Origin: a virus
Taxonomy: Duplodnaviria; Caudoviricetes
DNA: 53,046 bases
Virus record (IMG/VR): IMGVR_UViG_3300032117_001271
Span: 1 to 53,046 of that record
Strand: one strand, 5' to 3'
The notes beneath the pieces are model-generated. The model saw only the letters and a list, made by a program, of their open reading frames with translations, had not been told where the DNA came from and did no database searches. The position numbers were made by a program, and so were the translations under genes. Shown here in pieces: positions 5,411-52,341 of this stretch (the stretch's first letter is position 1; every line of letters begins with the position of its first letter).

Positions 5411-7688
5411 CTGGCAATGTAACTAGTTCTATAGTTGAATCAACAGTTAATAGCGGAACTTTGGGTTCTTTAGCTTTAGCAACAATAACCAACTTATCGT
5501 TATCAACTGTAATAGTAGCCCAACCACCTGATTTTAAATCGCCGAACAACATGAGTTTAGCAAGGTCACGTTTAATTTCCTTGTCAATAACACGTTGCAA
5601 TGGGCGAGCACCCATTTTGCTATCAAATCCTTTTTCAATTAACCATTCGATAGCATCTTTGTTAATCTTAATACGAATACCTTTATCTTTAACTTGATCT
5701 TTAAGCTCATCAACAAACTTGTTAACAATTTTAACCATTGTATCTTTGCCAAGTTTATTAAATGTAATAACACCGTCTAGACGATTACGGAATTCTGGAG
5801 TTAAAAACTTCTTCAAGTCTGCATCGCTGTAGTCTTTATCTTGTTTACCAAAGCCAATTGCGTTCTTCTCAGCACTTTGAGCACCAGCATTAGTAGTAAG
5901 AATAAGGATAATGTTACGGCAGTCTGCTTTCTTACCATTGCTTCCGGTAATAAAACCATTGTCCATTAATTGTAACAACACAGTCATTACATCTGGATGT
6001 GCTTTTTCAACTTCGTCTAACAACAATACAGCATTAGGAGCTTCTTGAACTTGTGTAATCAACTGTCCAGCATCTTCTTCAAAGCCAACATATCCTGGTG
6101 GGCTACCAATTAACTTACTAATACTGTGTTTCTCTTGATATTCACTCATATCAAAACGCAATAGTTTAACACCCAAGTGTTTAGCAAGCGATTTAGCTGT
6201 CTCAGTCTTACCAGTTCCAGTAGGCCCCATGAATACAAAGCTACCGACTGGTTTATTTTCAGTCTTAAGACCAGCTTGTGCAACCATAATCTTATCAACA
6301 ACTTCAGTCAATGCAAGCTCTTGCCCATAAACTTCCTTGTTTAGATTATCTTGTAGCGAAGACAAGTTGGAACTTTCTGTTTCCATAATCTTTTCTTCGG
6401 GCATGTTAACAATTTTAGAAAGTTCGTATTGAATTTCACGTTCAGTGATAATACGATCCTCTGAAAGTTTCAAATTAAAACGACTGCATGCCAAGTCGAT
6501 TAGGTCAATTGCCTTATCTGGTAACTTTTTATCTGTTTGATACTTAACTGACAATTTAATTGCGGCTTGCAATGCATCGTCTTTAATCTTAGTATTATGG
6601 AATTGTTCATAATACTTCTTAATACCTTTAAGAATTTGTAGTGTTACTTCTTGTGTAGGCTCGTCAACAGTAATGCGTTGGAATCGACGCATCAACGCAC
6701 GATCCTTTTCGAAGTGTTTACGATATTCTTCCCATGTTGTACTAGCAACAACTTTAATATTGCCCTTAGACAACGCAGGCTTCATCATATTAGCAAGGTC
6801 GTTGGCACTATTGCTTGCACTACCAGCACCGCTGATCATGTGTGCTTCATCGATAAACAAGACAGTTTTGCCCTTCTTAGCCAAAGCCTTTAGAACCATT
6901 TTAAATCGTTCTTCAAAGTCTCCACGGTACTTGCTACCTGCTAACATAGCACTGATGTCCAAGTTATAAACAGTATAATCCTTGAGGAAATCTGGAACTG
7001 CGCCCTTAACTATGTTGTATGCTAGACCTTCGGCTATAGCCGTCTTGCCTACACCAGGATCTCCAACAAGGATTACGTTGTTTTTACTACGACGCCCCAT
7101 TGCAAGTGCAATATTTTCTAATTCGTCTACTCGTCCAATCACTGGATCGATTTTATTCTTCTTAACTGCTTCGTTAAGGTTAGTTGTAAACGATGCAAGT
7201 GCTCGTCCACTACCAGCATCTCCCGGTGCTGGATCATTGCTTGCTTCGTCTTCCTCGACTGTATTGTTTAAATAGTCAGCAAACTTATCTTTATCAATGC
7301 CAGCTTGGTGAATATAAAAATATGCCCAACTACGTTTCTCGCCCATCATGGCAATAAACACATCTGTAGGTTCAATACGCTGACGTCCGTTAAACAAAAC
7401 CTGTGTAAATGCACGGTTAAGTACACGTTCGACAGCTTGCGTCTTTTTAGGTTTGATTACAACATCTTGTACAGTAATTTCTGCACATTTATTTTGTAGA
7501 TAATCTTGTAAATTAGTTTTGAGAGCATCTACGTTGCTTCCAAATCCTTTAATAATACCATTAAAATTATCTTCGCCCAACATTGCAAACAATAAATGTT
7601 CAATTGTTAAGTATTCGTGATGTAATTTTTTAGCACTATCGATAGCATTTTCGAAAACTGCTTGTAAGTTATCACTTGGTTCGACCAT
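5400..7688 (-). CDS. clpA: ATP-dependent Clp protease ATPase subunit ClpA
   Basis: Clp N domain (HEYLTIEHLL), two AAA+ modules (GDPGVGKT, FIDEAH; GPTGTGKT, LLDEVEKAH), pore loops KYRG and GYVG, the IGF ClpP-docking loop and GARPL. No ClpB-type M domain. Confidence 0.95.
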   Translation of the reverse strand: MVEPSDNLQAVFENAIDSAKKLHHEYLTIEHLLFAMLGEDNFNGIIKGFGSNVDALKTNLQDYLQNKCAEITVQDVVIKPKKTQAVERVLNRAFTQVLFNGRQRIEPTDVFIAMMGEKRSWAYFYIHQAGIDKDKFADYLNNTVEEDEASNDPAPGDAGSGRALASFTTNLNEAVKKNKIDPVIGRVDELENIALAMGRRSKNNVILVGDPGVGKTAIAEGLAYNIVKGAVPDFLKDYTVYNLDISAMLAGSKYRGDFEERFKMVLKALAKKGKTVLFIDEAHMISGAGSASNSANDLANMMKPALSKGNIKVVASTTWEEYRKHFEKDRALMRRFQRITVDEPTQEVTLQILKGIKKYYEQFHNTKIKDDALQAAIKLSVKYQTDKKLPDKAIDLIDLACSRFNLKLSEDRIITEREIQYELSKIVNMPEEKIMETESSNLSSLQDNLNKEVYGQELALTEVVDKIMVAQAGLKTENKPVGSFVFMGPTGTGKTETAKSLAKHLGVKLLRFDMSEYQEKHSISKLIGSPPGYVGFEEDAGQLITQVQEAPNAVLLLDEVEKAHPDVMTVLLQLMDNGFITGSNGKKADCRNIILILTTNAGAQSAEKNAIGFGKQDKDYSDADLKKFLTPEFRNRLDGVITFNKLGKDTMVKIVNKFVDELKDQVKDKGIRIKINKDAIEWLIEKGFDSKMGARPLQRVIDKEIKRDLAKLMLFGDLKSGGWATITVDNDKLVIVAKAKEPKVPLLTVDSTIELVTLPDGV

Positions 7689-8178
7689 TATAGTTCCTTA
7701 TCTTTTGTTGTTTCTTACGGGCCATTGCTAATTTTAGCATACTTGTTTTTTCTGTAAAACAGATACCATCTAAGTGATCCAGTTCATGTAAAAAGCATCT
7801 AGCTGTAATACCTGTTAATGTCATTTTACACTCTTGTGCATTTTTGTCAAGAAACTCGACATCAATTGTTTTTGGACGATTAACAGTTATGAACAAATCT
7901 GGAAAACTCAAACAGCCTTCTTCGTCTGTTTGTTGTTCTTCGCTGGCTGAAACAACACGAGGATTAAACATTGCCAATCTACGACCGTTTTCTAATTTAA
8001 TAACAAAAACTCTTTTTAGCAAACCAACTTGATTTGCCGCAAGTCCTATTCCGTTATTTGCAATCATAATATCGATCATTTCGTCTTCGACTTGATCGGC
8101 ATTGGCGTCTAAGCCGAAGTCCCAATCTTCGGCACGTTGTTTTAATATGGGATCAGGTTCTTTGACTAATTTTAGCAT
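7672..8178 (-). CDS. def: Peptide deformylase
   Basis: GIGLAANQVG, EGCLS and HELDHLDG motifs. Confidence 0.96.
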   Translation of the reverse strand: MLKLVKEPDPILKQRAEDWDFGLDANADQVEDEMIDIMIANNGIGLAANQVGLLKRVFVIKLENGRRLAMFNPRVVSASEEQQTDEEGCLSFPDLFITVNRPKTIDVEFLDKNAQECKMTLTGITARCFLHELDHLDGICFTEKTSMLKLAMARKKQQKIRNYNGRTK

Positions 8179-11166: not shown

Positions 11167-11897
11167 TATTTCCTCTCTAGTGCAACAGCCCAATCGCCGT
11201 TTTCAAATATAAATGTATCTTTGACTTTAACTATGTTATAGTTTCCGATAACTTTTGTTAAGAACATGACTTCTGCCATGTCCTTGCTTTCTAATAAAAC
11301 TGGACCTTTAATTGTGCTATGTATTACTGCTTTAGGTCCGCTTTCTAATATGTTAAATGTTACTTCACCGCTGAATTTTCTTTTAAATGTAATGCTTTCA
11401 TCAAGAACAACAATACTATCTGCAAAACTACGTTTAAAGAATTCGCTAAAATTATTTAAAGGATGTTCTTGGCTTGCTACTTTATAAGAATTTTTATCTT
11501 TAGGAACAGCCGCACTTAAATTTTCAAGGGTAGCTGGTTCGCTTTTAAAGTTTTTAAAATAGCGAAAGCGCATGTCTTCCATGCCTGTTAGTTTTTTAAC
11601 ACCTTCAATTAATTCAAAAATCTGTTTACCAATGTGACGAGTTCTTTCAAGTTCGACATAAACACGATATTTGCCGTCATCCAACTCACCAGGAGTTACA
11701 TCTGAATCTAAAACAAATGGGTAACCCATTTCAAAGAAATTTTCTAAATCTTTGGCAGGTTCTTCTGTGTCAACAGTGAAACTTAAAACACAAATGTCTT
11801 CGTCTTCACCAATTTTACTTTTGTAGGCATCGATGTCAAAAACTTTTTTAACTAAGTTTCTTAAATCACCTGCTCTTAAATTTTCATCTAACTTCAT
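11166..11897 (-). CDS. Hypothetical protein
   Basis: 243-aa ORF coupled to both neighbours. Confidence 0.75.
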   Translation of the reverse strand: MKLDENLRAGDLRNLVKKVFDIDAYKSKIGEDEDICVLSFTVDTEEPAKDLENFFEMGYPFVLDSDVTPGELDDGKYRVYVELERTRHIGKQIFELIEGVKKLTGMEDMRFRYFKNFKSEPATLENLSAAVPKDKNSYKVASQEHPLNNFSEFFKRSFADSIVVLDESITFKRKFSGEVTFNILESGPKAVIHSTIKGPVLLESKDMAEVMFLTKVIGNYNIVKVKDTFIFENGDWAVALERK

Positions 11898-12505
11898 GCC
11901 ACTGCTCCGCCTGGTGCTCCACCTGGAGTTGTTCCGCCTGGTGCTCCACCTGCTGGTGCTCCGCCTGGTGCAGGTGCTCCAGCAGGTGCTGGCGCTGGTG
12001 CTGGAGCCGGTGCTTGTTGTGTTTGAGCGGACTGATGACCTTTATCGTTAGTCAACATCTTGTCATCGCTCTTACCTTTCATCTTATGCATATAACCTTG
12101 ATAAATTTCAAATGCAATATGTTTAGGCATTTGTACTTCAACAATCCAAATAGGCTTGCGATCTAATTTACCCTTCTTACTATTAGGACGTAAATCTTGT
12201 GGGCTCTTAATTTTACGTGGTTCTAACAAATGGCTTTTTTGATATGTTACTTTGCAACCTAATTCCATTAAACGCTTACCTGCAACAGGATTAGGCATCT
12301 TATCTTTAGGCCACATAAAGCCAGCTGTGATCCAATGACGGTCTACTTTAGGGCCATATGCTAATTCACCATCGATCCAGTTTTCATATACGTATACGTC
12401 CATCTCTTCGAAAACACGTTCAAAGTCCTTTAAAACCGCAAGGCTACTGTTGTTTTCGTATAGTTCTTGTATGTTTTTAATAACATCTAATATGTCGTGG
12501 TGCAT
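11894..12505 (-). CDS. Hypothetical protein with a Pro/Ala/Gly low-complexity tail
   Basis: 203-aa ORF with TAAATA at 12532-12537 upstream. Confidence 0.75.
   Translation of the reverse strand: MHHDILDVIKNIQELYENNSSLAVLKDFERVFEEMDVYVYENWIDGELAYGPKVDRHWITAGFMWPKDKMPNPVAGKRLMELGCKVTYQKSHLLEPRKIKSPQDLRPNSKKGKLDRKPIWIVEVQMPKHIAFEIYQGYMHKMKGKSDDKMLTNDKGHQSAQTQQAPAPAPAPAPAGAPAPGGAPAGGAPGGTTPGGAPGGAVA
11897..12015 (-). repeat. Imperfect GC-rich coding tandem repeat (AP/GGAP units)
   Basis: Recurrent ggtgctcc(a/g)cct units encode APAPAPAGAPAPGGAPAGGAPGG. Confidence 0.75.
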
Positions 12506-12584
12506 TTGTCAATCCTAGAGTCTTCTACACTTATTTAGCTGGTTTGAAATCATACAGTATCAGTTTATTATTTTAGGAATACGT

Positions 12585-12668
12585 TAAATAATAGTGTAGG
12601 ACCTCTGTAGTTATCAAAGGCGGTCACTACAAGTCCTACTTTTACAGTAAGAGTAGGAGCACAACTAG
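12585..12668 (+). promoter_or_regulatory. TAAATA promoter and structured phoH leader with mutually exclusive hairpins
   Basis: GTAGGAC 12596-12602 pairs with GTCCTAC 12633-12639. Alternatively TCCTACTTTTA 12634-12644 pairs with TAAGAGTAGGA 12648-12658, covering the SD. Confidence 0.6.
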
Positions 12669-13388
12669 ATGAGTAAACAACGAGTGAAAAAGCGTTTTAC
12701 ATCAGAAGTTAACATTGTCGATTTTCCGCAATACCTTCCCCAAAAGAAGCATCGCGTGAGTTTACACCCACGAAATGCTAATCAAGCAACTTATATCCAG
12801 AAACTACAAGACGATAGTAAAAGCATAGTTTTTGCTATTGGTCCAGCCGGCACGGGTAAAACCATGCTAGCAGTTCAGCACGGTATTAAGATGTACCAAG
12901 ATGGTATCGTTGACAAAATCGTCGTGACAAGACCCGCCGTTTCCGTAGATGAAGATTTAGGATTTTTACCAGGTGACTTAAATGAAAAGATGGCACCATG
13001 GACAAGACCTATATTTGACGTCTTCTTGGATTATTATCAACAAAAAGACATTAACAAAATGCTGGAGGATGGAGTTATTGAGATAAGCCCACTTGCGTAC
13101 ATGCGTGGACGCACATTCAAAAACGCATACATCGTAGCAGATGAAATGCAAAATGCCACAGTAAATCAAATGAAGATGCTACTGACCCGTTTAGGAGAAG
13201 GGTCTAAGATGGTAGTGACAGGCGATTTAGCTCAAGCTGATAGATTAAAAGATAATGGCTTGATTGATTTTTGTAAATTATTAGATGGACATCCTGTACT
13301 AAAACATCTTGACATAGTACAATTTGATGCCAAGGACATTGAACGCCATAACGCAGTGAAGGAGGTGTTAGCTGTGTATGGAGATTGA
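12669..13388 (+). CDS. phoH: PhoH-family ATPase
   Basis: GPAGTGKT, TRPAV, LGFLPG, YMRGRTF, DEMQN and TGDLAQ.D motifs. Confidence 0.96.
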   Translation: MSKQRVKKRFTSEVNIVDFPQYLPQKKHRVSLHPRNANQATYIQKLQDDSKSIVFAIGPAGTGKTMLAVQHGIKMYQDGIVDKIVVTRPAVSVDEDLGFLPGDLNEKMAPWTRPIFDVFLDYYQQKDINKMLEDGVIEISPLAYMRGRTFKNAYIVADEMQNATVNQMKMLLTRLGEGSKMVVTGDLAQADRLKDNGLIDFCKLLDGHPVLKHLDIVQFDAKDIERHNAVKEVLAVYGD

Positions 13389-13409: not shown

Positions 13410-13434
13410 AAAAACCGCCTCAAGGGGCGGTTTT
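13410..13434. terminator. Bidirectional intrinsic terminator between convergent genes
   Basis: AAAAACCGCCTCAAGGGGCGGTTTT: a GC-rich stem flanked by A and T tracts. Confidence 0.85.
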
Positions 13435-22151: not shown

Positions 22152-22415
22152 TTACCAAGTTCCGCTTGGATATGTTTGTCGCACCCAAATATTAGCTGTT
22201 CCTGTGGTATAAGATGCTGTGCAATAGTAGATATAAGTTCCATCGAACGCCATCATACCAGCAGTATCTCCAGATTTACCTATACTGTGTGTAGGAGGTG
22301 TGGTCTGAGGATACAAATCATTAAAGTTGTTGTTTACTTTACTGAACGCAGTACGTAAAGGATCGCCTTTGCCATCGTTGGCTGTAGTTCCTAAATTGAT
22401 TGTTTGTTGTGCCAT
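22152..22415 (-). CDS. Miniature protein with a gp9/gp10-like anchor
   Basis: TINLGTTANDGKGDPLRTAFSKVNNNFNDLY followed by a domain of about 50 aa. Confidence 0.75.
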   Translation of the reverse strand: MAQQTINLGTTANDGKGDPLRTAFSKVNNNFNDLYPQTTPPTHSIGKSGDTAGMMAFDGTYIYYCTASYTTGTANIWVRQTYPSGTW

Positions 22416-25400
22416 TAATTTCTCCCTACAGCAACTTCAATGATTCCGGCTTCACCGTAATCTTTATCTTCTAGTGCCTTACCAATGATAGCACCTAGTG
22501 TTGGATTTAGTGCTTTAACAGCATAACCAGCTGTAGCACTTGTTGTTAACATGTCGCCTTTCTTAACACGACCAACAACCTTACATGGAACACGTCCGGC
22601 TAGTGCAACGAGATTTTTCAATCCTGGACAATCGCTATACATGACATAGGCCGCTTTTTCTGTGCTACTTACGACACCAGCTAATGCTGTATCATTGATA
22701 GTTGTTGTAGTAGTAATTTCTTTATCACCACCAAAGATAACAACAGTACCAACATCATACTCTGCATCGCCTTCGTAGTATTCTGCCAAGTCAGCTGAGT
22801 ATGTGGCAATCATTGTAGATCCACCAACTAGACTAAACTGTCCTTCGAATGTTGCCTTACCATATACACTACCAGCGTTTCCTGTTCCGCCTGGAGCAAC
22901 AGGGTTACTACTTGGGTTGGCACCACCAGCAACTATTGAGTTAACAAACAAACCACTACTTGATGATGTGTCAATGTAACCACCTGAACCAAGTTGGATA
23001 GTACCACTTGGATTAGATGAACCGCTTACACTCATGTATTGCCAGTTGTATGAACCTGGGGTAGTAAAGAATACACCAGTTGTACCACTTAATGACACAG
23101 TTGGATAACTGTTTAAATTCAAACCAGCAACGTCGATAGTGCCATCGGTACCAGTTTGAACAATACTACTTGCGGCGTGTGGATTAGAACCACCCGACTG
23201 TGTAATATTTGTTGTTGTGTAATGGTTACCTAATCCAGATACTGTCGAACCGTTGAATGTTCCTGTTGAAACACTACTAACAGTCATAATACCTGTTGAA
23301 GTAAACCATTGGTTAGTAACAGCATTACCGTTTGTTACAATATTAGCAAACGAAATTGGTTGTGGATATGTTGGATTTGCATTACCAGCAACACCTGTTA
23401 AATTACCAAGTACTGTACCTGCCGACATGAACTGTAATGCAGTTTGCGGAATACCAGTTTTGTAATTACCTGTGCCATCTCCGTTAGCATTAGAAGCATT
23501 TTGTAAGTTTACCCAACCGTTTGTTTGTGTAAACACCGCACTATTGAAACTTGCTAGGCCGTTTGCGGCCTGTATCTGTTGCGGAGTTCCTGTAGGATAT
23601 GAGCTTAGTGTAGTACCATTACTAATTACAGTTGGACTTGCACTAGCCGCAGTACTTTCAACAGTTGTTGTGTAAGTAGCGCCCGGAACATTTAACAATA
23701 ACTTACTTTGTTGGATATTAGCAGTACTAATAACCATTGAATCAACAATACTATTACTATTAATTTCACTAGTTAACGAACCACCAGCACCGCCATTATA
23801 ACTGATTGAAACACTATTACCAATGATTGTACCGTATGCAGTTAATGAACCACTTGAGTAACTGTTTGCAAATGACACACTACCTGCACTTGCGGCAGTA
23901 ACAGTAAAGATACCATTGTATGTAATTGGTACACAACCAGTTATAACTACAGTTGACCCAATTGGAAATAGTGTTGAACCTGAAGTGTAAGTAATTGTTG
24001 CAGTACCGGCAGTTGTTGAACCGCCAGTAACAGCCGAACTACCAGTACCTTGAGGAACTAAAATATTTCTCCAACGACTTGAAGTCCAAGTAAATCCACC
24101 TGAACCGCCTGTATAGTTTGCAGTAACAGCAAAAGTAGATCCATCTAATGCGGCACTTACTGTGATATTATTACCAGAAATGCCTGTAATATAATAAGTT
24201 CCGTTAGTTACACCACCTTGTGAAGTACCGGCAAATATAATAGTATCACCAACTTCTAATGTTGAAACAGTACTATTTGCACTTGCTACTAAAGTAATTG
24301 TGTTCACACCTGTAGCAGTTGCTGAAACATAACCAGTAGTTGTATCGTAAACAAGAATATTTCCAGGTACTGGATTATTGATGTTTACATCTTTTTGTTG
24401 TGCAAGATAGTTAATTGCATCAACATACTGTTTGTTTGTTGCATCAGTTGCATTGATTGGCAATCCAACGTTGTTAATAGTATTATTACCCAAGTTCAAG
24501 TTTGCACTCATTGGCAAAATACCATTCAACGGTAAGAAACCTGGTTTAATTAAGTTAGCGGCTGATACAGGAGCACCACTTTGTGTTACACCCAAACGAT
24601 AATCGACGTAACTTCGAATTGCACTTTGAACTGGAACAATACTTGTCGAGTTATCGTTCATTGTTGCGTCAGTTGAGAACTGAGTAACAACAACACCTTG
24701 TTTAAATCCTAACCCGGACAAATTACTCAACGCAATTGACGCTGAGAATGTAACAGTACCAGTACCTTGGTCAACTGTAAAGAATCGACCTACACGGAAG
24801 ATACCATTTTCGTCTGTACTTACATAGAATACACGACCCACAGTTTCTTCTAATACTTGGTTAGCAGGGTTAGCAGACAATGAAGGTGGTCCGTAAATTG
24901 TATTTGGATAGTTAGTTGTATTATAACCACCGGTACCGATACCTAAGAAGTCGTGTCCTGTTACACGGCAAGTACTAATATTAACAATAATTTGTCCAGT
25001 AGTACCAGCACTACAACCCACACGAAGTGAATTGTTTGCAGTTAAACTAAATGGTCTACCAATACCTAGTGTTGAACTAGAGCTTGTAGTTGTTTCTAGT
25101 GCTACATAAGCTGTGCCAGTGAATGATCCAGGATTACTTGGATATGTTAAAACAATAGTGTTTACACCAGTGTTAGTTGTGCTAGTACAAGGCCATGTTC
25201 CATTGAACAACGGATTACTGCTACCATAGACACGATAATAAGAACCGTTAACTACATTCATTGATGCAACAGTAAATGTTACAGCGTATGTACTTGTTCC
25301 TGAACCCGATGCACTTGCGGCACTAATTGCAAATGGAGTACCAAATGTAAACGCAGTAGCACTAAAGTTCATAGTACCAGTAGCAGTTCCAGTTGATAAC

Positions 25401-28400
25401 GGACTGAATACTGTGCCGTTTTGTGTTCCACTGATTGTAATAGAACCAACACCTACACTTAAAATGTAGTAAGGTGTTCCTGACACAAGATTACCCAATG
25501 CACTTCCATTTACCGGAGTAGTAAAGATAATTTGGTTGCCAACAGATAATCCAGAAGAACTACTTAATGTAATTACATTGCCGCTTGCCGCAACAGCAGT
25601 TGCAGTTCCAGTAATTGTATTAGATAATGTAGCAGGATATGCAACAGTAACTTGATTTACTGTACTAATTGCATTACCTGTTTCTGCGGTAATTGTCTGA
25701 CTGAATACAGTATTGCTTGATAATACTGCAAGGAATGTAGCAGTACCATAACTTGCTGTAACAGTTGGAACACCAGTATATCCAGTACCACCGTTAATTA
25801 ATGTTAGTAACGGACCGTTAACATAACCATTAGTTACAGTAGCAGTAGCAGTAGCTTGAACACCGCCATTTCCTGGAGACGCAATAGTAATAGTTGGAGC
25901 AGTTGCATATTCACCAGCACCAGCATTGATAACTTGAATACTTGCAACAGTTGTTGGGAATTGAGCAGTAATGTTTCCACCTGATGGAATCCAAACTGCT
26001 GGACTTACAGTAAATGTATAAGTGTCTAAACTTACTGATTGAACAATACAGTTAGGAGGAATAATAGCATTAGGCGTTGTACTAGATACAATCATACCTA
26101 CTGCTAATCCAGCTGTACTTGGAACTTGAATAGTTGTAACGCTAATTGCACCAACTACTTGTACCGGTAAATTAATATTATACGCATTTGTATTATTAAA
26201 TGGAGCAGATGAGCTACCACTAATTGTTAACCAGCTGTCTACGGGAGGTAAGACTGGAGTTGGAGCCGCATTGGTTTGTGTATTAGGTACATTATATGTT
26301 ACAAATTCATAACTAGTTCCATTTACACTTGTTTGTGCTCCTGCAAAAGTTAGAGCCGCAGGAGTTAAACCGTTAGACGCTAAATTAAGTGTTGAGTTTG
26401 GATCAATAATTAAATAAGCATTTGATGCAACAGGCAATCCTGTTACTGAACTTACAACTTGTGAGAAGTAGATAGTACCAGTTTGAGTTCCAGCAATGTT
26501 AGCTGTAGCACTCAATGTAATGGTTGTTTGGCCTGTTAATGAATTGTATACAGGTGTACCAACAACAGTTTGACCAGCAGTATAACCGCCGCTACTATAA
26601 ACTACCATTCCAGCAATAATAGTTCCGCCTACACTAGATACTACCAATGTAGTTGGGCTACCGCTAGTTGATGTACCACCGCTTACATAAGTTGCAGTTG
26701 CAGTTGATAACGGTCCAACATAACCCGTAATTCTGTGAACACGACCACCCCATGTAGTTACATATGATCCGTTATTGATTTGACTGATAGTTGCACTATT
26801 TGCAATAGATGTGATAGCAATCTTATTATCGCCAATAGTTGCACCTTGTGTGTAGTTAGTGAACCAAATTGGAACACCTGCCACTGGAGGTGTTGTAGTG
26901 TTTGCGGCCTTGCTTAAGGTAACAGTATAGTTACCGCCACTTGGTCCAGATACAGTTGCAACAATGTTCCCGTTTAATCCTAAACCACCAACTACTTGGC
27001 CAACAACTGGTGCTGTTGACATTGCTACAACTAATGTATAAGTTGGGCCAGCACTTACAGTATAGCTAACACAAGTGCCTTTTGCATATCCAGAAGAGTA
27101 TGCAGTTGGATCAGCGTTGATAACGTTTGCTGGGTCACTAGATAATTGGAAATAGTTAAATGAACTATCTGTTTGAATAATTGAAGTAGTTAGTGTCTGA
27201 GCTTGGAATGTATATGTTTGTCCAATAGGATTCGATCCAGGCGGACTTGTTAATGTAACTGCATAAGTTGTTCCACTTACTAGTGTTACAGCATAGACAG
27301 TATATGTACCATTTAATCCAGAACCAGTTACTAACTGGCCTATTGCAATAGTTCCAGTAGGGTTAGTTACTTGAATAACAGAACTTGATGTACTACCTGC
27401 AGAAACAACAGCAATGAAAGGAGTTCCTAAACCAACTAAAGTTTCACCTGTTGATTCGCTTAGGTTATAAGTGATAATACGATAGATACTTGCTAAGTTA
27501 CTTGAATATTGTAAACTTGTACTTGGTCGAGTTGGATGAACTGTTGCAACATTCAATACTTTCTGATTTTGAAGTACACGAATAGTTACTTGTTGTCCGT
27601 CGTAAACAGCATATTGTAAACCGGTAGCACTTGACTGACCAGTTGTACTAAATGTCAGTTGTAGTACATCCTGGCTTGTTCCGTTAACTAAAACTTCAAT
27701 GCCAGTATGTTGAATTGATGAAACTAGATATCTTGTAACGCCACCGCCTTGTAACGTATGGTCAATCTCAACTTCCGAATTGTTGTAAGGAGTATATTTG
27801 TAACCAGTTACCCAAATGCTCAATGCAGGAACACTACTAGTTGGGGTCATATAAGACAAAGTAATACCTTGTTTGTAAATTCTAGCAGTTTGCACTTGGT
27901 CATTTGCAAGAGTAACAATGTTTGGCAACTGTGTTAAATCGTAACCAGATGCACGTAAACCATAGTCACCTTGAGCGTTTGAACCAGCTACAGAGCGAAT
28001 TTGAGCACCATTCAATGCCCAATATGCAGTATGGCAATAGTATGTAAATGTTGAAACTTGTTCAGTTAAACCGTTGTTAGTAGCAAGTACACCATAACCC
28101 AAGTCGTTAACTTGTGTAAAGTCGTTAGCCAACATACTACGGTTACCAGCAGTTTCAAAATTGATTAGTAAGTTGCCACCATTAGAAATGTATGTTACAG
28201 TTGGTGTTACTAATGCAGTTGAAGCATTGCCAGTAATAGTTGTAAAGTCGGTGACAAGACCTGATGTTTGACTTGTGTAAGTAGGAACATTTCGAGTTAC
28301 AGAACCCCATGAACCAGAACTTACATAGCTACTCAATTGACTTACTAGTGTAGAAATTCTTGAAACTTCAGTAGAACTTGCCGCAGTTAAGTTTGTAATT

Positions 28401-31400
28401 TGAGCAACGTTATTACCAGCAGTTGGAGTAACTGGTGTGTTTAATAAAATTGCTTGTAGTACTGTGCTTAGACGAGCATAAGAGGCAACACAAATTGACT
28501 GTGTACCAGTTAATAACGATGTACCACTACTATAAAAACTCATAGCAGTATCGTAAGTCATACTGTTACTGTTACCACTTGAGTTATTGTACATGATGTC
28601 ATAAGTCAATGCATCGATGATATAACCAATATCGCGTTGTGATTTTGCGGCACTATAGTATGTGTTTGTACTTACATTGTAGTTTGCATTAATCCAAGCA
28701 GTAATTTCTTGTTGTACGAATGCTTTGTTTGCTTGTAAGATATTTTTAGCATTAACTTGGTAAGCAGTATTATAAGAAGTTGTTACTGGAGATGTCCAAG
28801 TAATAGTAGGAACTGCGGCAACACCATTGTTAAGAATATTAAGGATTGTACTAATATTATTTGCAACAGATGTTTGGCCGTTTGAACTAACACTTGGGCT
28901 AGTCAATCCAGCAATTAATGATCCAGTATAAGATATAGACTGTAACAACAATGCTAATTGTAAACCAGTGTAAGAATACTGAGGTTGTAATAATGTTAGA
29001 GCTTGTTTAACACTTTGATAATTTGTACTAAACACGTTATCATATGCCAATGCATTGATAAGATTGTTTAAAATTGTCTGTAATGTTGAAAAACTTCCAC
29101 CAAACGCAGTTAATGGATAGAATGGAGTTGAATTATCTAATGTAACAGTTACTTGTGGAACACTGAATGTATAAGTTCCAGCGGCTTGTGCAATTAAATT
29201 AGTAGTCAACTGAATTGTTGTACTGCCTGCTGTGTAATTTGGACTTACGTATGTCCAAGCAGGTACTCCAGTACCAGTGACTAATTGACCAGCAACAATG
29301 TTGTTTGCACTTGCAACAACAATAGTACTTGCACCACTTGCACCGCCACTTACATAAGTTGTTGTTGCAACAGTTACACTTTGTGAATAACTTGCAACAT
29401 CGTTAACTTGATAACGAATACCTTGAATAAAGAAACTGCAAGGTACTTGTGGTTTACGAACATCTAAACCAGTGTTAGCTGAACCTTGTACAGTTAAACT
29501 TGTACCGTTAGTACCAGATGCATTGGCACCAATGCTAATAATGTTACCATATAAACGACCAGAGAAACCGTCAATAAACTGTCCACCAGCAAATCTTGGC
29601 TCATTAATACTGCCACTAAAGCTAGCAGATTCTTGAGCATATGGTGATTTGGTCTTAATCTGCCCTTCGGCATCAAGTACCATCATGAATCCACCATGAC
29701 CTTGGCCGGTAATCAACTTAACGCGAGTAGCATCGTTTACCAAGAACATATCGATTTGTTTGTTGTTCAATGGTGTTGAATAGAAGTTACTTGGGTCGGT
29801 CAAGTAATGACGTCCATAAGGTAAACCGTTGTACAAGTGCCATGAACCGCCTGCTAGTACATTTGGACTTACATTAGAATTTGCAAAAGGATAACCCTGT
29901 AATACTGTACAATATAAAATATTACCACTAACGTTAGTAACAACAGCCTTGGCCGCAGTACCATACGGGTCGCTAGTTGCTACCATTAAGATTAAACCAA
30001 TCCAACTTGTTAACGCATTTGTTGTTGACAAGGTAGCTGTAATATAACCTGTTGTTGCACTGATTGTAATCGAATCACTAGATGCATAATCAACACCGCC
30101 GCGATTTAAACTTGGGAAGTTGATTTGTCCAACTAGTAAGTTATCAACAACAACATCTCTGTAGAAGAACGCACTACGCCAGTTACTTTGACTGATACGA
30201 TTTAACGGACGAATAATTGTACGACGGAAGTCATCGCCGCGAATTGTAACGTTTGCTGGAATCTTAATTGGGAAATCTTCGTAGTAAATACCGCTTTCTA
30301 CAAAAATAGTAATATTAAGATTAGCAACTGTTTCGCCAAAGTCTAATGTTTCGTTAGCTACAAAGAAACCAGGCTGTGTCATCTTAACATAGATAGTATC
30401 ATAGCTTTGTGTAGTACCAGGTGTGTATGAAACAATAACACCTTGTGCTCCACTAGTTCCGCCGATTAAAATCTTACCTGGAAGAATGTGTACGTCGCCT
30501 GGAGTACCTTGGTCAACGTAACCGCGACCACCGTTACTAAATTGAATTTGATATAGTCCATCTCCATAATTAGGAGTAGCAGGCGCACTACCATAACCAT
30601 TAGTAATAATACTGTAGAATGTGTTGTAGTTTCCAGTAATGTTTGTTATTGCACCAACTGCCGATGTCTTTGTAGAATCATAAGGTGTTTGTGTGACAGC
30701 TGATTGATAACGTAATGCTTGTGTTTGATTTAACACTTGTAGCATCAATTGAAATGAAAAGTTCAGACCATCTAATGTTTCTACTCGTTGTGTACCAATT
30801 GCAATAGTTTGTGCAGAAGCATTTTTATAATATGCTTTACCAGCGTTTACACTTTGGAAGTTAGCTGTAATACCAGCGTTTGAATCACTAGTAATAGCAT
30901 CAATAACTAATGCATCAACCAAATAGCCAACATCACGATAGCATAGCGATTGGTTGTAGTTAAATCCGCCAGTGTATTTTCCATTTAAGTAACTTACAAC
31001 TGAGCTAGCAATGGTAGCATCGTTTGATTCAATAATTAAGAATGCAGGATAAAATTCAACATTGGTGTAACTTAATACGCTTGGGAGTGCAGGAGTTGTA
31101 CTACCTGAACTGTTAATAATATTTTCAGCAATAGTTAGCAATGCACCAATTTGAGTAGAAGCATTGCTACTACCAGTAGAAGAAGTTTGTGTGTTCGTAT
31201 ATGTATATCCAGGAACTAATCCTAATACACCAGAAATACTTTGACCAGAAGCAATATCAGACACAACGTAAGACATACGATTCTTAATAGTCAAATACAT
31301 GTATGTAGCTTCTGTGCTTCCACTTGTATATAACAATGCTTGTTGTGCCGCAAATACAGTTGCCGCAGTTGAATTAACATTGCTATTTGTATATGTTATA

Positions 31401-34045
31401 TCATAAGCAATCGCTTCTGCAATATACTTCATTGCATTTTGGAATTGTGTTGCACCGATACTAGGTGCACCATATTGACTAACAAAATAGTGCCATGCAT
31501 CTTCTGCAATGAACGCAACATTTAAGTTAATAGCAGTAGCGGCCGCAACATATCCAGTAATTGCACCTAATGGTGTACTCGATAATGTTGGAGTCGGACG
31601 AGATGGGCTTCCTGTAATGGTAGTTCCGTTAGGACCATATGTTAACAATGTATTAAGTGTTGTAAACAATGTATTAAGTGTACTGGTAACGTTGGTATCG
31701 TTAATAACTGTAAAGTTTGGACTTACTAAGTCTGCACTAATTGTTAAACCACTAAATGGAACACTTGAATTTTGACTTATAATTGCATTGTAAGCAAGAA
31801 ATAATTCTGTACCACTGCCTAAGAAACTAATACTTGGGTTTGATAAATTTGCATTGTAGTAAGTTTGTGCAATAGCTTCTGATGAATCACTGATAATTGT
31901 TTGAATAGAAGCAATATTAGCAATAACACTATTAACTAAAGTATCACCAGATGTTACACCAGTTAATGTTTTGTTGATGTATTGTGGAATTGTTGTTTGA
32001 TACAATGTAGTATTAGCTGTAGTACCTAACGGACTATTGATGACAATATTATTAACAAGAGTCTTAAGGTAATTAACCGCATTAATTGTCGCAGTTAATT
32101 CAGTACTTTGAATTTGTAAAGTACCGTTGGTATAGTTGTAACCCCAGTACTGCATACCTGCGTATAAACTTTGGCTATTACCACCGTACATTACATCATA
32201 CACTAAAGACCATACAATGTATTGTACGTCACGTTGGCATGTTGTTTGACTATAAGATAAACTTGAATAGTTAGCTGTTAGATATCCAACAATTTCAGCT
32301 TGAATAAATGAAATATTGTTTAACAATAATTGTTTAATAACAACTTGCTCGGCAGTTGTATTTGAATTAGAAGGATAGGTCGGAGTACTAGCACTAACAC
32401 CACTTACTAAATTCTTAATAAGTGCAATGTTGGCTGTAATCGAATTAGCCGCATCTGGATATGCTGTTGCAAAGTTACTAGAGCCGACGGTGATTGCTAA
32501 AATTCTAGTTTGTAATTTTGTTAATGCATAGGTAATTTCAGCAGTATTCAGACCAGTACCGTAGTGGGCAAAGTTTAAACCAACCATTGTACTTTGGAAG
32601 TTGCTACCGATGGCTAGGTCGTTTTCTAATGCTGTAACAACTTGATTAATATATTTTTGAACTAGGCTACTGCTATAAGAATAAGTTCCAATCTGTGTTT
32701 GAATGTAACCAATAGCATCTGTAATTTGTGCTAATTGATTTTGAATTATGTTTTGGTTAGCAAGTGTTGGATTGAACAATGAGCTAACTTGAGTAATACT
32801 TTGGAAGTTAGAACCTAACAACAAGTCATACCCGACAGCATCGATAATATTTTTAAGAATGCTGTAGTAACCTGTACTACTGAATGTGTTAACGTACTTG
32901 CTATTGATATATGCAATAGTTTCTTGTTGAATAAATGTTCTATTTGATTCTAATAAACTTTGTGCATTAGTGTATACAGTATTGGCACTATTACCGCCAG
33001 TAGCAGTTGCAGATGTCACTAACGACTGAGTCTGACTTTGATTGATAGTATATGTAATTGTTTGGCGATATGGACCTGCTTCTAATTGTGACAAGCTGAT
33101 TAAGTTTTGTGCTTGTAATGCGGCCGCACCAACAGTCTTATAAGCATACTGCCACCCGCGTCCATTACGTCCAGCTGGTACATGAACTTGAGAATCGTCA
33201 CCACTAGTACTTACATACAAGTTTACGTTACTATAATATGTGCTATTATCTACATAATATTTTGTAGCGGCTTGCAAATCACTGCTGGTATTAATAAGTC
33301 CTTGTCCTGACAACGGTGTTGGATGGTCGCTTAGTTCTAACGGACCAGTCATTGTATCGCCGCCTCTGTATACAACATCTTTACGTTGCATAACTTCGGT
33401 AGCTAGGTAGTTACTGGTTAAACTTGAGTTATAATCTGCATCTCCAGTTTGTGGTAAACTAGGTTGAGCTCGAGTTTTCAAAGCGGCTGATACTGTGTAT
33501 GTTCCTGCTTTTGTACTATTAACACCTGATCCAACAGATACTGTTGACAAATTACTTGCTACACCGGCAACGTAATGATTAATACCATAATTAACTGTAA
33601 CTGGAAGTTGGCCAAATGAAGTATTATCAGCAGTGTATAAATTATTAAATGAATTAACAACTGCTGGGCTTGGATCTACAAAGTTACCAACATAGTTGTG
33701 CGCCACGTTCATAGACGCATTTAATGTTGGACTTGTGTCAGAAACTAATTTAGCGGCGGTAGTTGATAAGTTAATACCTGTCGAAGTAAACGCAATATTA
33801 ACAGTTCTGTCATTACTAGTTAATGTTCTTGCACTTAATTTAGTTCCGTCGGTGCTACCTGCAATCAATTGATTAGCAGTATATACTGTACCATCTGACA
33901 AACTTCCAAGAGTTAAAGCACCACCTAGACCGAAAACAGCATAAAGTTCTGTAAAATTCTGGTTAACCTTGATAAAAGATTCGCGGATACTATCGCCGGT
34001 ACCGTCATTTCCTTGGATACCTGTATTAATTACTTTTTGTGTCAT
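22415..34045 (-). CDS. Giant (3876 aa) tail fibre/structural protein with a C-terminal intramolecular-chaperone (peptidase G2-like) domain
   Basis: gp9/10-like N-terminus, DAxTKxYVD fibre motifs, beta-helix-like segments, helical CxRD repeats and C-terminal ADLAEYY...GTVV...LAGRVPCKV...KGDMLTTS...IIGKALE. Confidence 0.85.
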   Translation of the reverse strand: MTQKVINTGIQGNDGTGDSIRESFIKVNQNFTELYAVFGLGGALTLGSLSDGTVYTANQLIAGSTDGTKLSARTLTSNDRTVNIAFTSTGINLSTTAAKLVSDTSPTLNASMNVAHNYVGNFVDPSPAVVNSFNNLYTADNTSFGQLPVTVNYGINHYVAGVASNLSTVSVGSGVNSTKAGTYTVSAALKTRAQPSLPQTGDADYNSSLTSNYLATEVMQRKDVVYRGGDTMTGPLELSDHPTPLSGQGLINTSSDLQAATKYYVDNSTYYSNVNLYVSTSGDDSQVHVPAGRNGRGWQYAYKTVGAAALQAQNLISLSQLEAGPYRQTITYTINQSQTQSLVTSATATGGNSANTVYTNAQSLLESNRTFIQQETIAYINSKYVNTFSSTGYYSILKNIIDAVGYDLLLGSNFQSITQVSSLFNPTLANQNIIQNQLAQITDAIGYIQTQIGTYSYSSSLVQKYINQVVTALENDLAIGSNFQSTMVGLNFAHYGTGLNTAEITYALTKLQTRILAITVGSSNFATAYPDAANSITANIALIKNLVSGVSASTPTYPSNSNTTAEQVVIKQLLLNNISFIQAEIVGYLTANYSSLSYSQTTCQRDVQYIVWSLVYDVMYGGNSQSLYAGMQYWGYNYTNGTLQIQSTELTATINAVNYLKTLVNNIVINSPLGTTANTTLYQTTIPQYINKTLTGVTSGDTLVNSVIANIASIQTIISDSSEAIAQTYYNANLSNPSISFLGSGTELFLAYNAIISQNSSVPFSGLTISADLVSPNFTVINDTNVTSTLNTLFTTLNTLLTYGPNGTTITGSPSRPTPTLSSTPLGAITGYVAAATAINLNVAFIAEDAWHYFVSQYGAPSIGATQFQNAMKYIAEAIAYDITYTNSNVNSTAATVFAAQQALLYTSGSTEATYMYLTIKNRMSYVVSDIASGQSISGVLGLVPGYTYTNTQTSSTGSSNASTQIGALLTIAENIINSSGSTTPALPSVLSYTNVEFYPAFLIIESNDATIASSVVSYLNGKYTGGFNYNQSLCYRDVGYLVDALVIDAITSDSNAGITANFQSVNAGKAYYKNASAQTIAIGTQRVETLDGLNFSFQLMLQVLNQTQALRYQSAVTQTPYDSTKTSAVGAITNITGNYNTFYSIITNGYGSAPATPNYGDGLYQIQFSNGGRGYVDQGTPGDVHILPGKILIGGTSGAQGVIVSYTPGTTQSYDTIYVKMTQPGFFVANETLDFGETVANLNITIFVESGIYYEDFPIKIPANVTIRGDDFRRTIIRPLNRISQSNWRSAFFYRDVVVDNLLVGQINFPSLNRGGVDYASSDSITISATTGYITATLSTTNALTSWIGLILMVATSDPYGTAAKAVVTNVSGNILYCTVLQGYPFANSNVSPNVLAGGSWHLYNGLPYGRHYLTDPSNFYSTPLNNKQIDMFLVNDATRVKLITGQGHGGFMMVLDAEGQIKTKSPYAQESASFSGSINEPRFAGGQFIDGFSGRLYGNIISIGANASGTNGTSLTVQGSANTGLDVRKPQVPCSFFIQGIRYQVNDVASYSQSVTVATTTYVSGGASGASTIVVASANNIVAGQLVTGTGVPAWTYVSPNYTAGSTTIQLTTNLIAQAAGTYTFSVPQVTVTLDNSTPFYPLTAFGGSFSTLQTILNNLINALAYDNVFSTNYQSVKQALTLLQPQYSYTGLQLALLLQSISYTGSLIAGLTSPSVSSNGQTSVANNISTILNILNNGVAAVPTITWTSPVTTSYNTAYQVNAKNILQANKAFVQQEITAWINANYNVSTNTYYSAAKSQRDIGYIIDALTYDIMYNNSSGNSNSMTYDTAMSFYSSGTSLLTGTQSICVASYARLSTVLQAILLNTPVTPTAGNNVAQITNLTAASSTEVSRISTLVSQLSSYVSSGSWGSVTRNVPTYTSQTSGLVTDFTTITGNASTALVTPTVTYISNGGNLLINFETAGNRSMLANDFTQVNDLGYGVLATNNGLTEQVSTFTYYCHTAYWALNGAQIRSVAGSNAQGDYGLRASGYDLTQLPNIVTLANDQVQTARIYKQGITLSYMTPTSSVPALSIWVTGYKYTPYNNSEVEIDHTLQGGGVTRYLVSSIQHTGIEVLVNGTSQDVLQLTFSTTGQSSATGLQYAVYDGQQVTIRVLQNQKVLNVATVHPTRPSTSLQYSSNLASIYRIITYNLSESTGETLVGLGTPFIAVVSAGSTSSSVIQVTNPTGTIAIGQLVTGSGLNGTYTVYAVTLVSGTTYAVTLTSPPGSNPIGQTYTFQAQTLTTSIIQTDSSFNYFQLSSDPANVINADPTAYSSGYAKGTCVSYTVSAGPTYTLVVAMSTAPVVGQVVGGLGLNGNIVATVSGPSGGNYTVTLSKAANTTTPPVAGVPIWFTNYTQGATIGDNKIAITSIANSATISQINNGSYVTTWGGRVHRITGYVGPLSTATATYVSGGTSTSGSPTTLVVSSVGGTIIAGMVVYSSGGYTAGQTVVGTPVYNSLTGQTTITLSATANIAGTQTGTIYFSQVVSSVTGLPVASNAYLIIDPNSTLNLASNGLTPAALTFAGAQTSVNGTSYEFVTYNVPNTQTNAAPTPVLPPVDSWLTISGSSSAPFNNTNAYNINLPVQVVGAISVTTIQVPSTAGLAVGMIVSSTTPNAIIPPNCIVQSVSLDTYTFTVSPAVWIPSGGNITAQFPTTVASIQVINAGAGEYATAPTITIASPGNGGVQATATATVTNGYVNGPLLTLINGGTGYTGVPTVTASYGTATFLAVLSSNTVFSQTITAETGNAISTVNQVTVAYPATLSNTITGTATAVAASGNVITLSSSSGLSVGNQIIFTTPVNGSALGNLVSGTPYYILSVGVGSITISGTQNGTVFSPLSTGTATGTMNFSATAFTFGTPFAISAASASGSGTSTYAVTFTVASMNVVNGSYYRVYGSSNPLFNGTWPCTSTTNTGVNTIVLTYPSNPGSFTGTAYVALETTTSSSSTLGIGRPFSLTANNSLRVGCSAGTTGQIIVNISTCRVTGHDFLGIGTGGYNTTNYPNTIYGPPSLSANPANQVLEETVGRVFYVSTDENGIFRVGRFFTVDQGTGTVTFSASIALSNLSGLGFKQGVVVTQFSTDATMNDNSTSIVPVQSAIRSYVDYRLGVTQSGAPVSAANLIKPGFLPLNGILPMSANLNLGNNTINNVGLPINATDATNKQYVDAINYLAQQKDVNINNPVPGNILVYDTTTGYVSATATGVNTITLVASANSTVSTLEVGDTIIFAGTSQGGVTNGTYYITGISGNNITVSAALDGSTFAVTANYTGGSGGFTWTSSRWRNILVPQGTGSSAVTGGSTTAGTATITYTSGSTLFPIGSTVVITGCVPITYNGIFTVTAASAGSVSFANSYSSGSLTAYGTIIGNSVSISYNGGAGGSLTSEINSNSIVDSMVISTANIQQSKLLLNVPGATYTTTVESTAASASPTVISNGTTLSSYPTGTPQQIQAANGLASFNSAVFTQTNGWVNLQNASNANGDGTGNYKTGIPQTALQFMSAGTVLGNLTGVAGNANPTYPQPISFANIVTNGNAVTNQWFTSTGIMTVSSVSTGTFNGSTVSGLGNHYTTTNITQSGGSNPHAASSIVQTGTDGTIDVAGLNLNSYPTVSLSGTTGVFFTTPGSYNWQYMSVSGSSNPSGTIQLGSGGYIDTSSSSGLFVNSIVAGGANPSSNPVAPGGTGNAGSVYGKATFEGQFSLVGGSTMIATYSADLAEYYEGDAEYDVGTVVIFGGDKEITTTTTINDTALAGVVSSTEKAAYVMYSDCPGLKNLVALAGRVPCKVVGRVKKGDMLTTSATAGYAVKALNPTLGAIIGKALEDKDYGEAGIIEVAVGRN

Positions 34046-37337: not shown

Positions 37338-38013
37338 TATCCGAATAGTAGATGATTTTTACGAAGATCCTAATGAGATCCTCGAACTACTAAAAGGCGA
37401 TTATCCTATAACTGGTTGTGGAAGTGGCAAACGTAGCGTCGGGCTACAGGATTTATCTTTGGCTCATTTTTGGAAATTCAGAAAAGCTATCTATAACATG
37501 CATGGTTTAGATGGCAAAAATCTTCACATGTATACTTTCTTCATGCAACACGAATACAACCCTATTGAAGTGTTTAATCATAATTGGGTACACATTGACG
37601 GAAAGAATCCCGATGCTTGTAGATTAACTACAGAAGATTACAAACTAGTTTTATGTGGCCAAGTATTTTTAACACCCGATCCTGACCCGGATTGTGATAT
37701 AGAAATATGCCGTGTAAAACCTGGATTGAATTGGAGCCGTCAAGAATTGATAGATAGAACTATTAATGATTATACGAATCCAAAAGAAGATTTACAAGCA
37801 GGTCGAATTACACAAGAAGAGTTTGAAAAATTGCATGACGAGTATCACGACAATTTTGTAACAACTGAAATAGTTAAAAATAAATTTAACAGACTAGTAA
37901 CTTGGCCAGCAGGTACGTTGCACGGTGCAAGAATGAATAAAAATATGCAACGTCGACTTACACAGTTTTTCTTTATACAAAGTACAGGACCGTTAGACAC
38001 ATGGCCGGAATAA
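37330..38013 (+). CDS. 2OG-Fe(II) oxygenase-like protein (DUF6445-like; likely start MSDIR at 37330)
   Basis: IVDDFYEDP, WVHID, NKFNRLV, LHG and RLTQFFF motifs. Confidence 0.75.
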   Translation: MSDIRIVDDFYEDPNEILELLKGDYPITGCGSGKRSVGLQDLSLAHFWKFRKAIYNMHGLDGKNLHMYTFFMQHEYNPIEVFNHNWVHIDGKNPDACRLTTEDYKLVLCGQVFLTPDPDPDCDIEICRVKPGLNWSRQELIDRTINDYTNPKEDLQAGRITQEEFEKLHDEYHDNFVTTEIVKNKFNRLVTWPAGTLHGARMNKNMQRRLTQFFFIQSTGPLDTWPE

Positions 38014-38501
38014 CTGTAATACCAAATCTTGCAACACCAGAAGAGATCAAGTCTTTAATAGACGATATGCTTCCATTGGCTAGCGAAAACAACATGGTAT
38101 ATTTTGCATCTACTGGTGTGAAGGACGGAATCAAAAAAGTTAATTGTAATGATCATCCTACAGTAACAGTCTTATTAAATCGATTGTCTATAGATAAAAG
38201 CAGTTTAGACATTGCAAACTTTTTATGTTACCCGGCAGGATCTTTTAACCAAGCTCACGCCGATAATTCGATAATGGATAACGGGCAAGTAAAACGCATC
38301 AAGCCGTGGACACATACGGCTATTGTATTTTTAAATAAAGATTTTGCCGGTGGAGAACTAGTTTACCCAAATCAAGGATGTACTTTTACACCCACAGTTG
38401 GTACTTATGTCCTAGCACCGGCAGACATCGACTATGTACATCATGTCAATAAAGTACGTATAGGTGAACGCTATACGCTAGTTCTTAGATTGATTATATA
38501 A
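38001..38501 (+). CDS. 2OG-Fe(II) oxygenase (prolyl-4-hydroxylase-like)
   Basis: HAD, FLNKDFAGGEL, HHVNKV and GERYT motifs. Confidence 0.88.
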   Translation: MAGITVIPNLATPEEIKSLIDDMLPLASENNMVYFASTGVKDGIKKVNCNDHPTVTVLLNRLSIDKSSLDIANFLCYPAGSFNQAHADNSIMDNGQVKRIKPWTHTAIVFLNKDFAGGELVYPNQGCTFTPTVGTYVLAPADIDYVHHVNKVRIGERYTLVLRLII

Positions 38502-39491: not shown

Positions 39492-39691
39492 TACCAATGC
39501 CTTATGACGCCTAAGATTATAAAAGTGTTTGTAAGTACATATGATAACACAATTAAGGTACGAATGCAAGCAATTCGGTCCGATTCCTTGTCCGTATTGC
39601 CTGCTTTTTCACCTAATGCTTTAGCCCAAAGGCGCCAAAAATAATTAGCCTTCGTACGTAGCCGAGTTTGCACCGTGTTCAAATACTTCAA
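39491..39691 (-). CDS. Small membrane protein
   Basis: WRLWAKALGEK...IRTLIV...GVIRHW with one TM segment; overlaps the queD end, so the start is uncertain. Confidence 0.6.
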   Translation of the reverse strand: MKYLNTVQTRLRTKANYFWRLWAKALGEKAGNTDKESDRIACIRTLIVLSYVLTNTFIILGVIRHW

Positions 39692-52202: not shown

Positions 52203-52341
52203 GTTTTTCCTCTATAAAATCGATCCCGTAGAAACTTTGGAAAGGTGTTTTGTACACTGAATAATCCAATGCATCATGCAATGATTCAAAATACTTTACC
52301 ATTAGTTGTCCGGTTGTTGAATAATATCTTAACTTATACAT
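52195..52341 (-). CDS. Small hypothetical protein (48 aa; not in the ORF track)
   Basis: [48 protein letters not shown]; fills the gap and overlaps both neighbours. Confidence 0.55.

Follow-up and report, generated by a model that had tools for sequence, protein, structure and literature searches.

The phoH locus and the two folds of its leader

The stretch of DNA analysed here (the window, 53,046 nucleotides) is fragmentary: taken from a virus record, it has an estimated completeness of 14%. It contains a phoH gene on the plus strand whose product matched phrog_170 among the PHROGs (E = 4.1e-77). A gap of 163 nucleotides separates the start of phoH from a divergently oriented gene for a virion structural protein, which has a long Pro/Ala/Gly-rich C-terminal tail (window 11894-12010, minus strand). 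The features of the region, with the strand names used below, are the following.

11894-12505, minus strand: divergent virion structural protein gene (match to phrog_12928)
12532-12537, minus strand: TAAATA box of the divergent virion-protein gene (motif scan)
12544-12571, plus strand: sigma-70-like site TTGAAA-16-TATTAT, a possible second upstream promoter (consensus scan only)
12585-12590, plus strand: TAAATA box, putative T4-late-type promoter core of phoH (conservation in alignment A1)
12596-12602, plus strand: R1 (GUAGGAC), 5' arm of the outer helix H1, the anti-anti-SD strand (sequence, pair counts, RNAalifold)
12606-12611, plus strand: R2 (UGUAGU), 5' arm of the inner helix H2 (sequence, pair counts, RNAalifold)
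12613-12624, plus strand: apical mini-helix, 12613-12615 with 12622-12624 (RNAalifold consensus pairs, columns 56-58 with 66-68)
12622-12631, plus strand: X1 (GGUCACUACA), 3' arm of H2 in the open state and partner of R1 (H3) in the closed state (MFE, pair counts)
12633-12639, plus strand: X2 (GUCCUAC), 3' arm of H1, of which 12634-12639 is the anti-SD strand (sequence, pair counts)
12634-12658, plus strand: H4, SD-sequestering hairpin, 12634-12644 with 12648-12658, loop CAG (MFE, pair counts)
12653-12659, plus strand: R3/SD strand, the partner of X2 in the closed state
12655-12659, plus strand: Shine-Dalgarno (SD) sequence AGGAG, 9 nucleotides before the ATG
12669-13388, plus strand: phoH, 239 amino acids, PhoH domain alone, without a PIN domain
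13411-13434, plus strand: terminator-like hairpin 3' of phoH (scan)

Elsewhere in the window, positions 22415-34045 on the minus strand form one open reading frame of 3,876 codons, and auxiliary genes recognised by PHROG match lie at 7672-8178, 39645-40172, 52334-52705, 38001-38501 and 48608-49192; their products are a peptide deformylase, a QueD-like synthase, a MazG-like pyrophosphohydrolase and two 2OG-Fe(II) oxygenase-like proteins.

The TAAATA box upstream of phoH agrees with the T4 late promoter core, and this agreement is the basis of the predicted transcript start. T12585 and A12587 were invariant across alignment A1, A12586, T12589 and A12590 were at least 90% conserved, and A12588 was A or G in relatives. 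There are 33 TAAATA motifs in the window, eight of them within its 2,614 non-coding bases, and all eight sit 11-92 nucleotides 5' of a co-oriented open reading frame; these reading frames include the divergent virion-protein gene and neighbours of head genes. The distance from box to ATG is 84 nucleotides for phoH, 11-52 nucleotides for six of the other seven intergenic boxes and 92 nucleotides for the remaining one. By analogy with T4, the phoH transcript probably starts at about G12596, the first base of R1, 5 nucleotides past the TAAATA box. With a late-type start at this position, the transcript would open directly with the two-tier hairpin described below, a coincidence of hairpin and start that had escaped an earlier note on this DNA. 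R1 begins 4-5 nucleotides past TAAATA in every clade, a spacing consistent with a transcript start on R1. No late sigma factor was found when 30 proteins of the window, an estimated 14% of the genome, were compared with PHROGs.

Support for the sigma-70-like site at 12544-12571 as a working promoter is weak; the consensus scan found six such sites in the region against 5.3 expected. The block that holds it is kept in relatives. This intergenic block (12520-12572; consensus in relatives about TCTATACTTATTTAGCTGGTTTAAAATCATAACGTATCAGTTTATTATT) is very conserved and contains both the minus-strand TAAATA and the sigma-70-like site; its conservation exceeds what a bare promoter needs.

The phoH leader comprises 73 nucleotides (12596-12668), with the ATG at 12669. 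The earlier note had located the TAAATA box, the GTAGGAC/GTCCTAC and TGTAGT/ACTACA pairings, an 11-bp stem and the AGGAG correctly, and its observation that GTAGGA occurs twice (12596 and 12653) against a single TCCTAC (12634) was also borne out. R2 directly repeats the UGUAG of 12595-12599. In the open state, H1 (R1:X2; 12596-12602 with 12633-12639) and H2 (R2:X1; 12606-12611 with 12626-12631) form one long 5' hairpin, and the SD is free. In the closed state, R1 pairs with X1 to give H3 (12595-12599 with 12627-12631 plus 12600-12603 with 12622-12625), X2 pairs with R3 to give H4, and the SD is buried. The strands of H4, TCCTACTTTTA (12634-12644) and TAAGAGTAGGA (12648-12658), form 11 base pairs with one G.U around a 3-nucleotide loop and cover the AGGA of the SD AGGAG. 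As modelled, the open and closed folds are mutually exclusive. The role of X1 (12622-12631) as a second partner of R1, which holds the 5' arm in the hidden-SD state, had been overlooked in the earlier note.

When positions 12594-12680 were folded with ViennaRNA, the MFE came to -24.1 kcal/mol, with a z of -2.36 and as good a fold in 5 of 200 shuffles, so that the folding energy by itself is only mildly unusual. The MFE structure combines H4 with H3, and the open hairpin is the next state (-20.6 versus -23.4 kcal/mol). The long 5' hairpin with which the transcript had been said to open is thus present, and is conserved and covarying in relatives as described below, but it comes second to the MFE fold. 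It is conservation, and not folding energy, that places the element beyond chance.

Conservation and covariation in relatives

Hundreds of IMG/VR contigs encode a PhoH that shares 74-90% identity with that of the window, and from them a sample of 107 distinct leaders, the window included, was obtained. Across 113 relatives, identity to the window was 90.3% in the leader core (R1 to X2), 85.7% at phoH codon positions 1+2, 51.9% at codon position 3 and 69.0% in the 45 nucleotides upstream of the TAAATA box; the leader core is therefore better conserved than phoH codon positions 1+2. In one relative (L344, 805-1554, minus strand) the PhoH frame diverges past the AYMRGR motif and is unrelated for at least 100 residues, perhaps because of an intein or other insertion.

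The element is specific to phoH. A degenerate motif pattern had matches in at least 120 viral-contig stretches, and each of the 80 loci fetched among them held one match, directly 5' of a phoH-type start; the open-state covariance model found a single site in the 53-kb window. A general late-gene leader was accordingly rejected, given the single model site in the window and a pattern that occurs once per contig and always at phoH. The exact string TAAATA-N5-GTAGGA occurs once in the window, and 13 times with up to two mismatches (8.7 expected). A hidden small ORF was rejected as well, since there are stops in all frames of 12592-12668 and indels of 1-2 nucleotides in relatives.

A search of window positions 12300-12900 against Rfam 15, as the earlier note had suggested, returned just three unrelated weak matches (E 3.3-9.2), and in the loci of ten relatives no Rfam family matched at the leader. 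No phage record carried a PhoH with at least 60% identity, blastn of the window gave short intragenic matches only, and no account of the phoH leader turned up in literature searches on phage phoH RNA motifs and on phoH riboswitches. The leader constitutes a new RNA family whose kind of regulation is already known, and the element belongs to a clade of uncultured lake phages.

The open hairpin was predicted by RNAalifold on a plain MAFFT alignment. In the 107 leaders, 99.0% of 1,379 cells of H1/H2 were paired, with three pairs changed on both sides in five cells within the window's clade; the sequence of this clade is almost invariant, hence the few compensatory events. More distant phoH genes, reached via two relatives (L343 and L475), show the same plan in other sequences. 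Alignment A2, fitted to the open-state model with the sister clade included, comprises 64 matches, of which 61 lie at phoH leaders; here 12 of the 13 H1/H2 pairs show both-side changes, with 83 cells affected. Such counts were not attained by any of 500 shuffles, and the slid controls stayed at 17 cells or fewer. Because A2 and A3 were both fitted to model structures, counts from either lean towards those structures. The 5'-terminal helix was found in 198 of 207 distinct leaders, with UA, UG and CG pairs at position 2 and AU, GC and GU pairs at position 6, and in the sister clade the sequence of the inner helix is fully replaced. The many G.U pairs assign the structure to the plus-strand RNA. 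Judged from these sequence comparisons, the H1/H2 hairpin is well supported and is the ancestral, family-wide feature.

For the closed fold, 97.6% of 1,934 H3/H4 cells were paired in the 107 leaders. In H4 (96.8% of cells paired) three pairs were changed on both sides in 11 cells, as UA-to-AU swaps at three stem pairs in nine, one and one sequences; neither this number of cells nor the score was attained in any of 500 shuffles. In the model-fitted alignment A3, six of the nine H4 pairs were changed on both sides. For H3, 98.4% of cells were paired; it is broken in three leaders carrying G12600A, and no H3 pair was changed on both sides in alignment A1. As regards the covariation asked for in the earlier note, both exclusive helices pair in relatives with some compensatory changes, and the anti-anti-SD/anti-SD/SD arrangement that the note had read from one sequence is real, conserved and phoH-specific. 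By the same counts, covariation appears weaker for H4 than for H1/H2.

The two folds also differ in how far they reach. The closed-state model recovered 19 leaders of the clade-1 type; among sister-clade and distant leaders it recovered 11, against 42 by the open-state model. Divergent members of clade 1 favour the open model, as in L466 (67.9 versus 50.1 bits). In sister-clade and distant leaders, SD pairing was no stronger than in a spacer-shuffle control (2.24 versus 2.03 kcal/mol), and SD hiding is therefore not family-wide. A few sister-clade leaders, e.g., L483, still fold into a clean closed state. These comparisons suggest that SD hiding by the 3' arm of the hairpin came later and is for the most part peculiar to the window's clade; the hairpin, in turn, is older and better supported than SD hiding, a point absent from the earlier note. 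In the majority of leaders, a test for a proximal decoy of R1 fell short of significance (a median of 87 of 200 shuffles reached the observed run), and three-way covariation of R1, X2 and the SD region is anecdotal, with three C-G-C cases for it and three U-A-C cases against it at position 2.

In one phoH subgroup (L457-L461), the leader has just a 9-11 bp 5'-terminal hairpin, the 7th and 8th pairs of which covary, and an A-rich unpaired stretch ahead of the SD, that is, a hairpin without the switch. Pseudomonas phage PA5oct, a cultured jumbo phage, shows the same synteny, a divergent structural-protein gene followed by phoH (L558:320-512), with a TAAATA box and, 5 nucleotides on, an 8-bp hairpin at the position that R1 takes in the clades above; its phoH SD pairs with the start-codon region instead. 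In its main text, the PA5oct paper names TATAATA and TTGAC motifs and does not mention phoH (PMC7318152).

The energies of the two folds were compared as nearest-neighbour estimates. Over the 107 leaders, E(open) minus E(closed) was +0.64 +/- 2.47 kcal/mol; the folds lay within 3 kcal/mol of each other in 86 leaders, and the closed fold was favoured in 74 and the open fold in 32. By these estimates, the open and closed folds of the window's clade are close to equal in energy. The barrier estimated for the window leader was 12.7 kcal/mol from the open and 15.5 kcal/mol from the closed fold, and the means over the 107 leaders were 15.3 and 15.9 kcal/mol, respectively. As the transcript grows, the predicted optimum passes from H3 to the open hairpin (from nucleotide 42) and then to the closed fold (from nucleotide 62), which makes kinetic partitioning plausible.

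Proposed control of phoH translation and competing explanations

We hold it to be probable, with considerable room for doubt, that the leader is a cis-acting, phoH-specific and bistable element in which the 5' hairpin acts as the anti-sequestor controlling phoH translation. The transcript would start at G12596 and its 5' end would fold as H1 and H2; as long as this hairpin stands, the SD would be free and phoH translatable. If the 5' arm switches to 12622-12631 (H3), the strand 12634-12644 would be freed and could pair with 12648-12658 (H4), burying the AGGA of the SD, and the closed fold would be expected to block 30S binding. PhoH yield would then be set by how each transcript partitions between the folds, given that these are exclusive and about equally stable. 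The architecture of the two-state switch proposed in the earlier note is supported, and in the window's clade the two folds are of nearly equal energy, but the hiding of the SD does not extend to the whole family. In this model, mutation of R1 is predicted to lock the leader closed and mutation of X1 (12622-12631) to lock it open.

If partitioning is regulated, the most likely routes are co-transcriptional folding or a protein able to bind or open the 5' hairpin; kinetic partitioning might also go unregulated. PhoH itself is the obvious candidate for such a protein, given that the element occurs nowhere but at phoH, and a small ligand is a less likely trigger. Three other triggers were rejected in silico. 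Promoter choice as in T4 gene e does not fit, since TAAATA lies 5' of all arms, and with 5' extensions of 6-36 nucleotides (back to 12560) the balance kept its direction, at 2.2-3.5 kcal/mol. An RNA thermometer was rejected in silico, with E(open) minus E(closed) at 1.6-2.8 kcal/mol over 4-37 C. An attenuator with an intrinsic terminator was rejected because a scan of 12506-12668 gave no terminator-like site; H4 is followed by GCACAACUAG, with no U-run.

The competing explanation to which we give most weight, though we think it unlikely, is a 5'-terminal stabilising hairpin together with a constitutive damper of translation, without regulated switching: the hairpin would guard against 5'-end-dependent decay, the SD helix would fix a low translation rate and the shared strand would be an economical by-product. 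Such a leader would account for a hairpin at the predicted +1 that is an ancient, family-wide feature and is present also in the L457-L461 group and PA5oct, which have a free SD, and it would fit a search for a trigger that came up empty. It sits poorly, however, with the retention of both exclusive helices in 107 variants, with a conserved second partner of R1 that keeps the closed state stable, and with a balance within 3 kcal/mol in 86 of the 107 leaders, which a fixed damper does not need. A different view of the hairpin, in which PhoH binds or unwinds it in its own message, so that the anti-SD is freed and its own translation is switched off, is a tentative idea that we regard as improbable. 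PhoH is predicted to be an RNA-dependent ATPase. The element is strictly tied to phoH, and unwinding of the hairpin would give the closed state by geometry alone; phage PhoH, however, has no counterpart of the PIN domain of PhoH2. A 2026 preprint, in its available text, places lineage-specific structured RNAs next to bacterial PhoH2 genes, but these RNAs are long and multi-stem, not short leaders (10.64898/2026.10.21.760802). That phage PhoH, as an ATPase opening the hairpin of its own message, has its natural RNA substrate or operator in this leader is likewise a long shot.

The earlier note had also entertained a ligand as regulator, and this has become less likely. The leader does have the SD-sequestor/anti-sequestor expression platform of translational riboswitches, in which, as here, three strands compete, the SD and an upstream anti-sequestor being alternative partners of one strand; the platform thus follows riboswitch logic, and the internal loop and a GGCGGUC stretch are conserved. 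If the 5' hairpin were an aptamer, a ligand (e.g., a nucleotide or a phosphate-related compound) would fix one of the two states. Yet the leader has neither a recognisable aptamer nor an Rfam match, even at E <= 10: it is a single irregular hairpin without a multi-helix junction or an invariant unpaired core, its apical loop varies in length and sequence among relatives, its inner helix is wholly changed in the sister clade, and the conservation of GGCGGUC is partly explained by H3 pairing. A metabolite riboswitch is for these reasons highly improbable in our judgement. The inverted repeats do lie between two divergent promoters, where a palindromic operator or protein site acting as DNA, not RNA, might be expected; such an element is scarcely credible. 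The plus strand has G.U at four pairs in 28, 18, 9 and 49 sequences, which on the other strand would be A.C and meaningless for a DNA palindrome; compensatory changes preserve the pairing while the half-site sequence alters, and the repeats lie downstream of the promoter box. The bistable anti-sequestor remains the reading that we prefer.

In two sister-clade leaders, L483 (1438-1485) and L495, the first 14 nucleotides agree with the E. coli 16S rRNA terminal hairpin (L560:82-95) at 13 and 12 of 14 positions, respectively, with the tetraloop included in L483. Mimicry of 16S rRNA helix 45 was rejected for the leaders at large: the closed-state model finds nothing in the 3' end of E. coli 16S rRNA, and agreement with the 14-mer reaches 12 positions or more in just 2 of the 207 leaders, whereas the bulk of the 207 (116) agree at six. 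Mimicry by the L483 and L495 leaders themselves has a low probability.

Known systems and significance for phage phoH

In the T4 genes e, soc and I-TevI, the ribosome-binding site is occluded in early transcripts and the occlusion is relieved in late ones. The phoH leader resembles these genes in its T4-type late promoter box, its SD-burying hairpin and the translational level of the proposed control; in T4, however, the late promoter lies inside the hairpin and the late transcript lacks the 5' arm, whereas the TAAATA of phoH is upstream of every arm. The leader of the MS2 maturation gene and the hok mRNA are kinetically controlled, with the SD accessible in a transient or alternative fold only. 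They share with the phoH leader an SD exposed in an alternative fold and a high barrier (13-15 kcal/mol as estimated here), but theirs are long-range pairings, and for the phoH leader kinetic control is only plausible. The 5' UTR of ompA forms a 5'-terminal stem-loop that stabilises the message. As in stabilisers of this type, the helix of the phoH leader would lie at or adjoining the first transcribed nucleotide (here a predicted 5' end), with the difference that its 3' arm also serves as the anti-SD. In the available text of the preprint cited above, the bacterial PhoH2-associated RNAs are conserved, structured and lineage-specific in sequence, and are thus, like the phoH leader, conserved structured RNAs beside a PhoH-family gene; they are, however, long multi-stem RNAs (one candidate of 357 nucleotides) next to bacterial PIN-PhoH genes (10.64898/2026.10.21.760802), as opposed to the 73-nucleotide mRNA leader of a PIN-less phage PhoH.

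The leader described here has no Rfam entry and yet is found in hundreds of contigs of uncultured phages. It offers small objects that can be tested: an RNA of 73 nucleotides in which four strands are defined, and mutants predicted to lock it open or closed. The family also illustrates how a simple 5'-terminal hairpin may be turned into a bistable element of translational control.

Few auxiliary genes are as widespread in aquatic phages as phoH, which serves as a marker gene, but to our knowledge the function of phage phoH has not been established. A leader that is strongly selected and phoH-specific implies that for these phages it matters how much PhoH is made or when, and it provides a first experimental handle on the control of phage phoH. 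If PhoH acts on the leader, this would be the first defined RNA target for phage PhoH, and the hairpin would show the type of RNA structure that proteins of the PhoH family act on.
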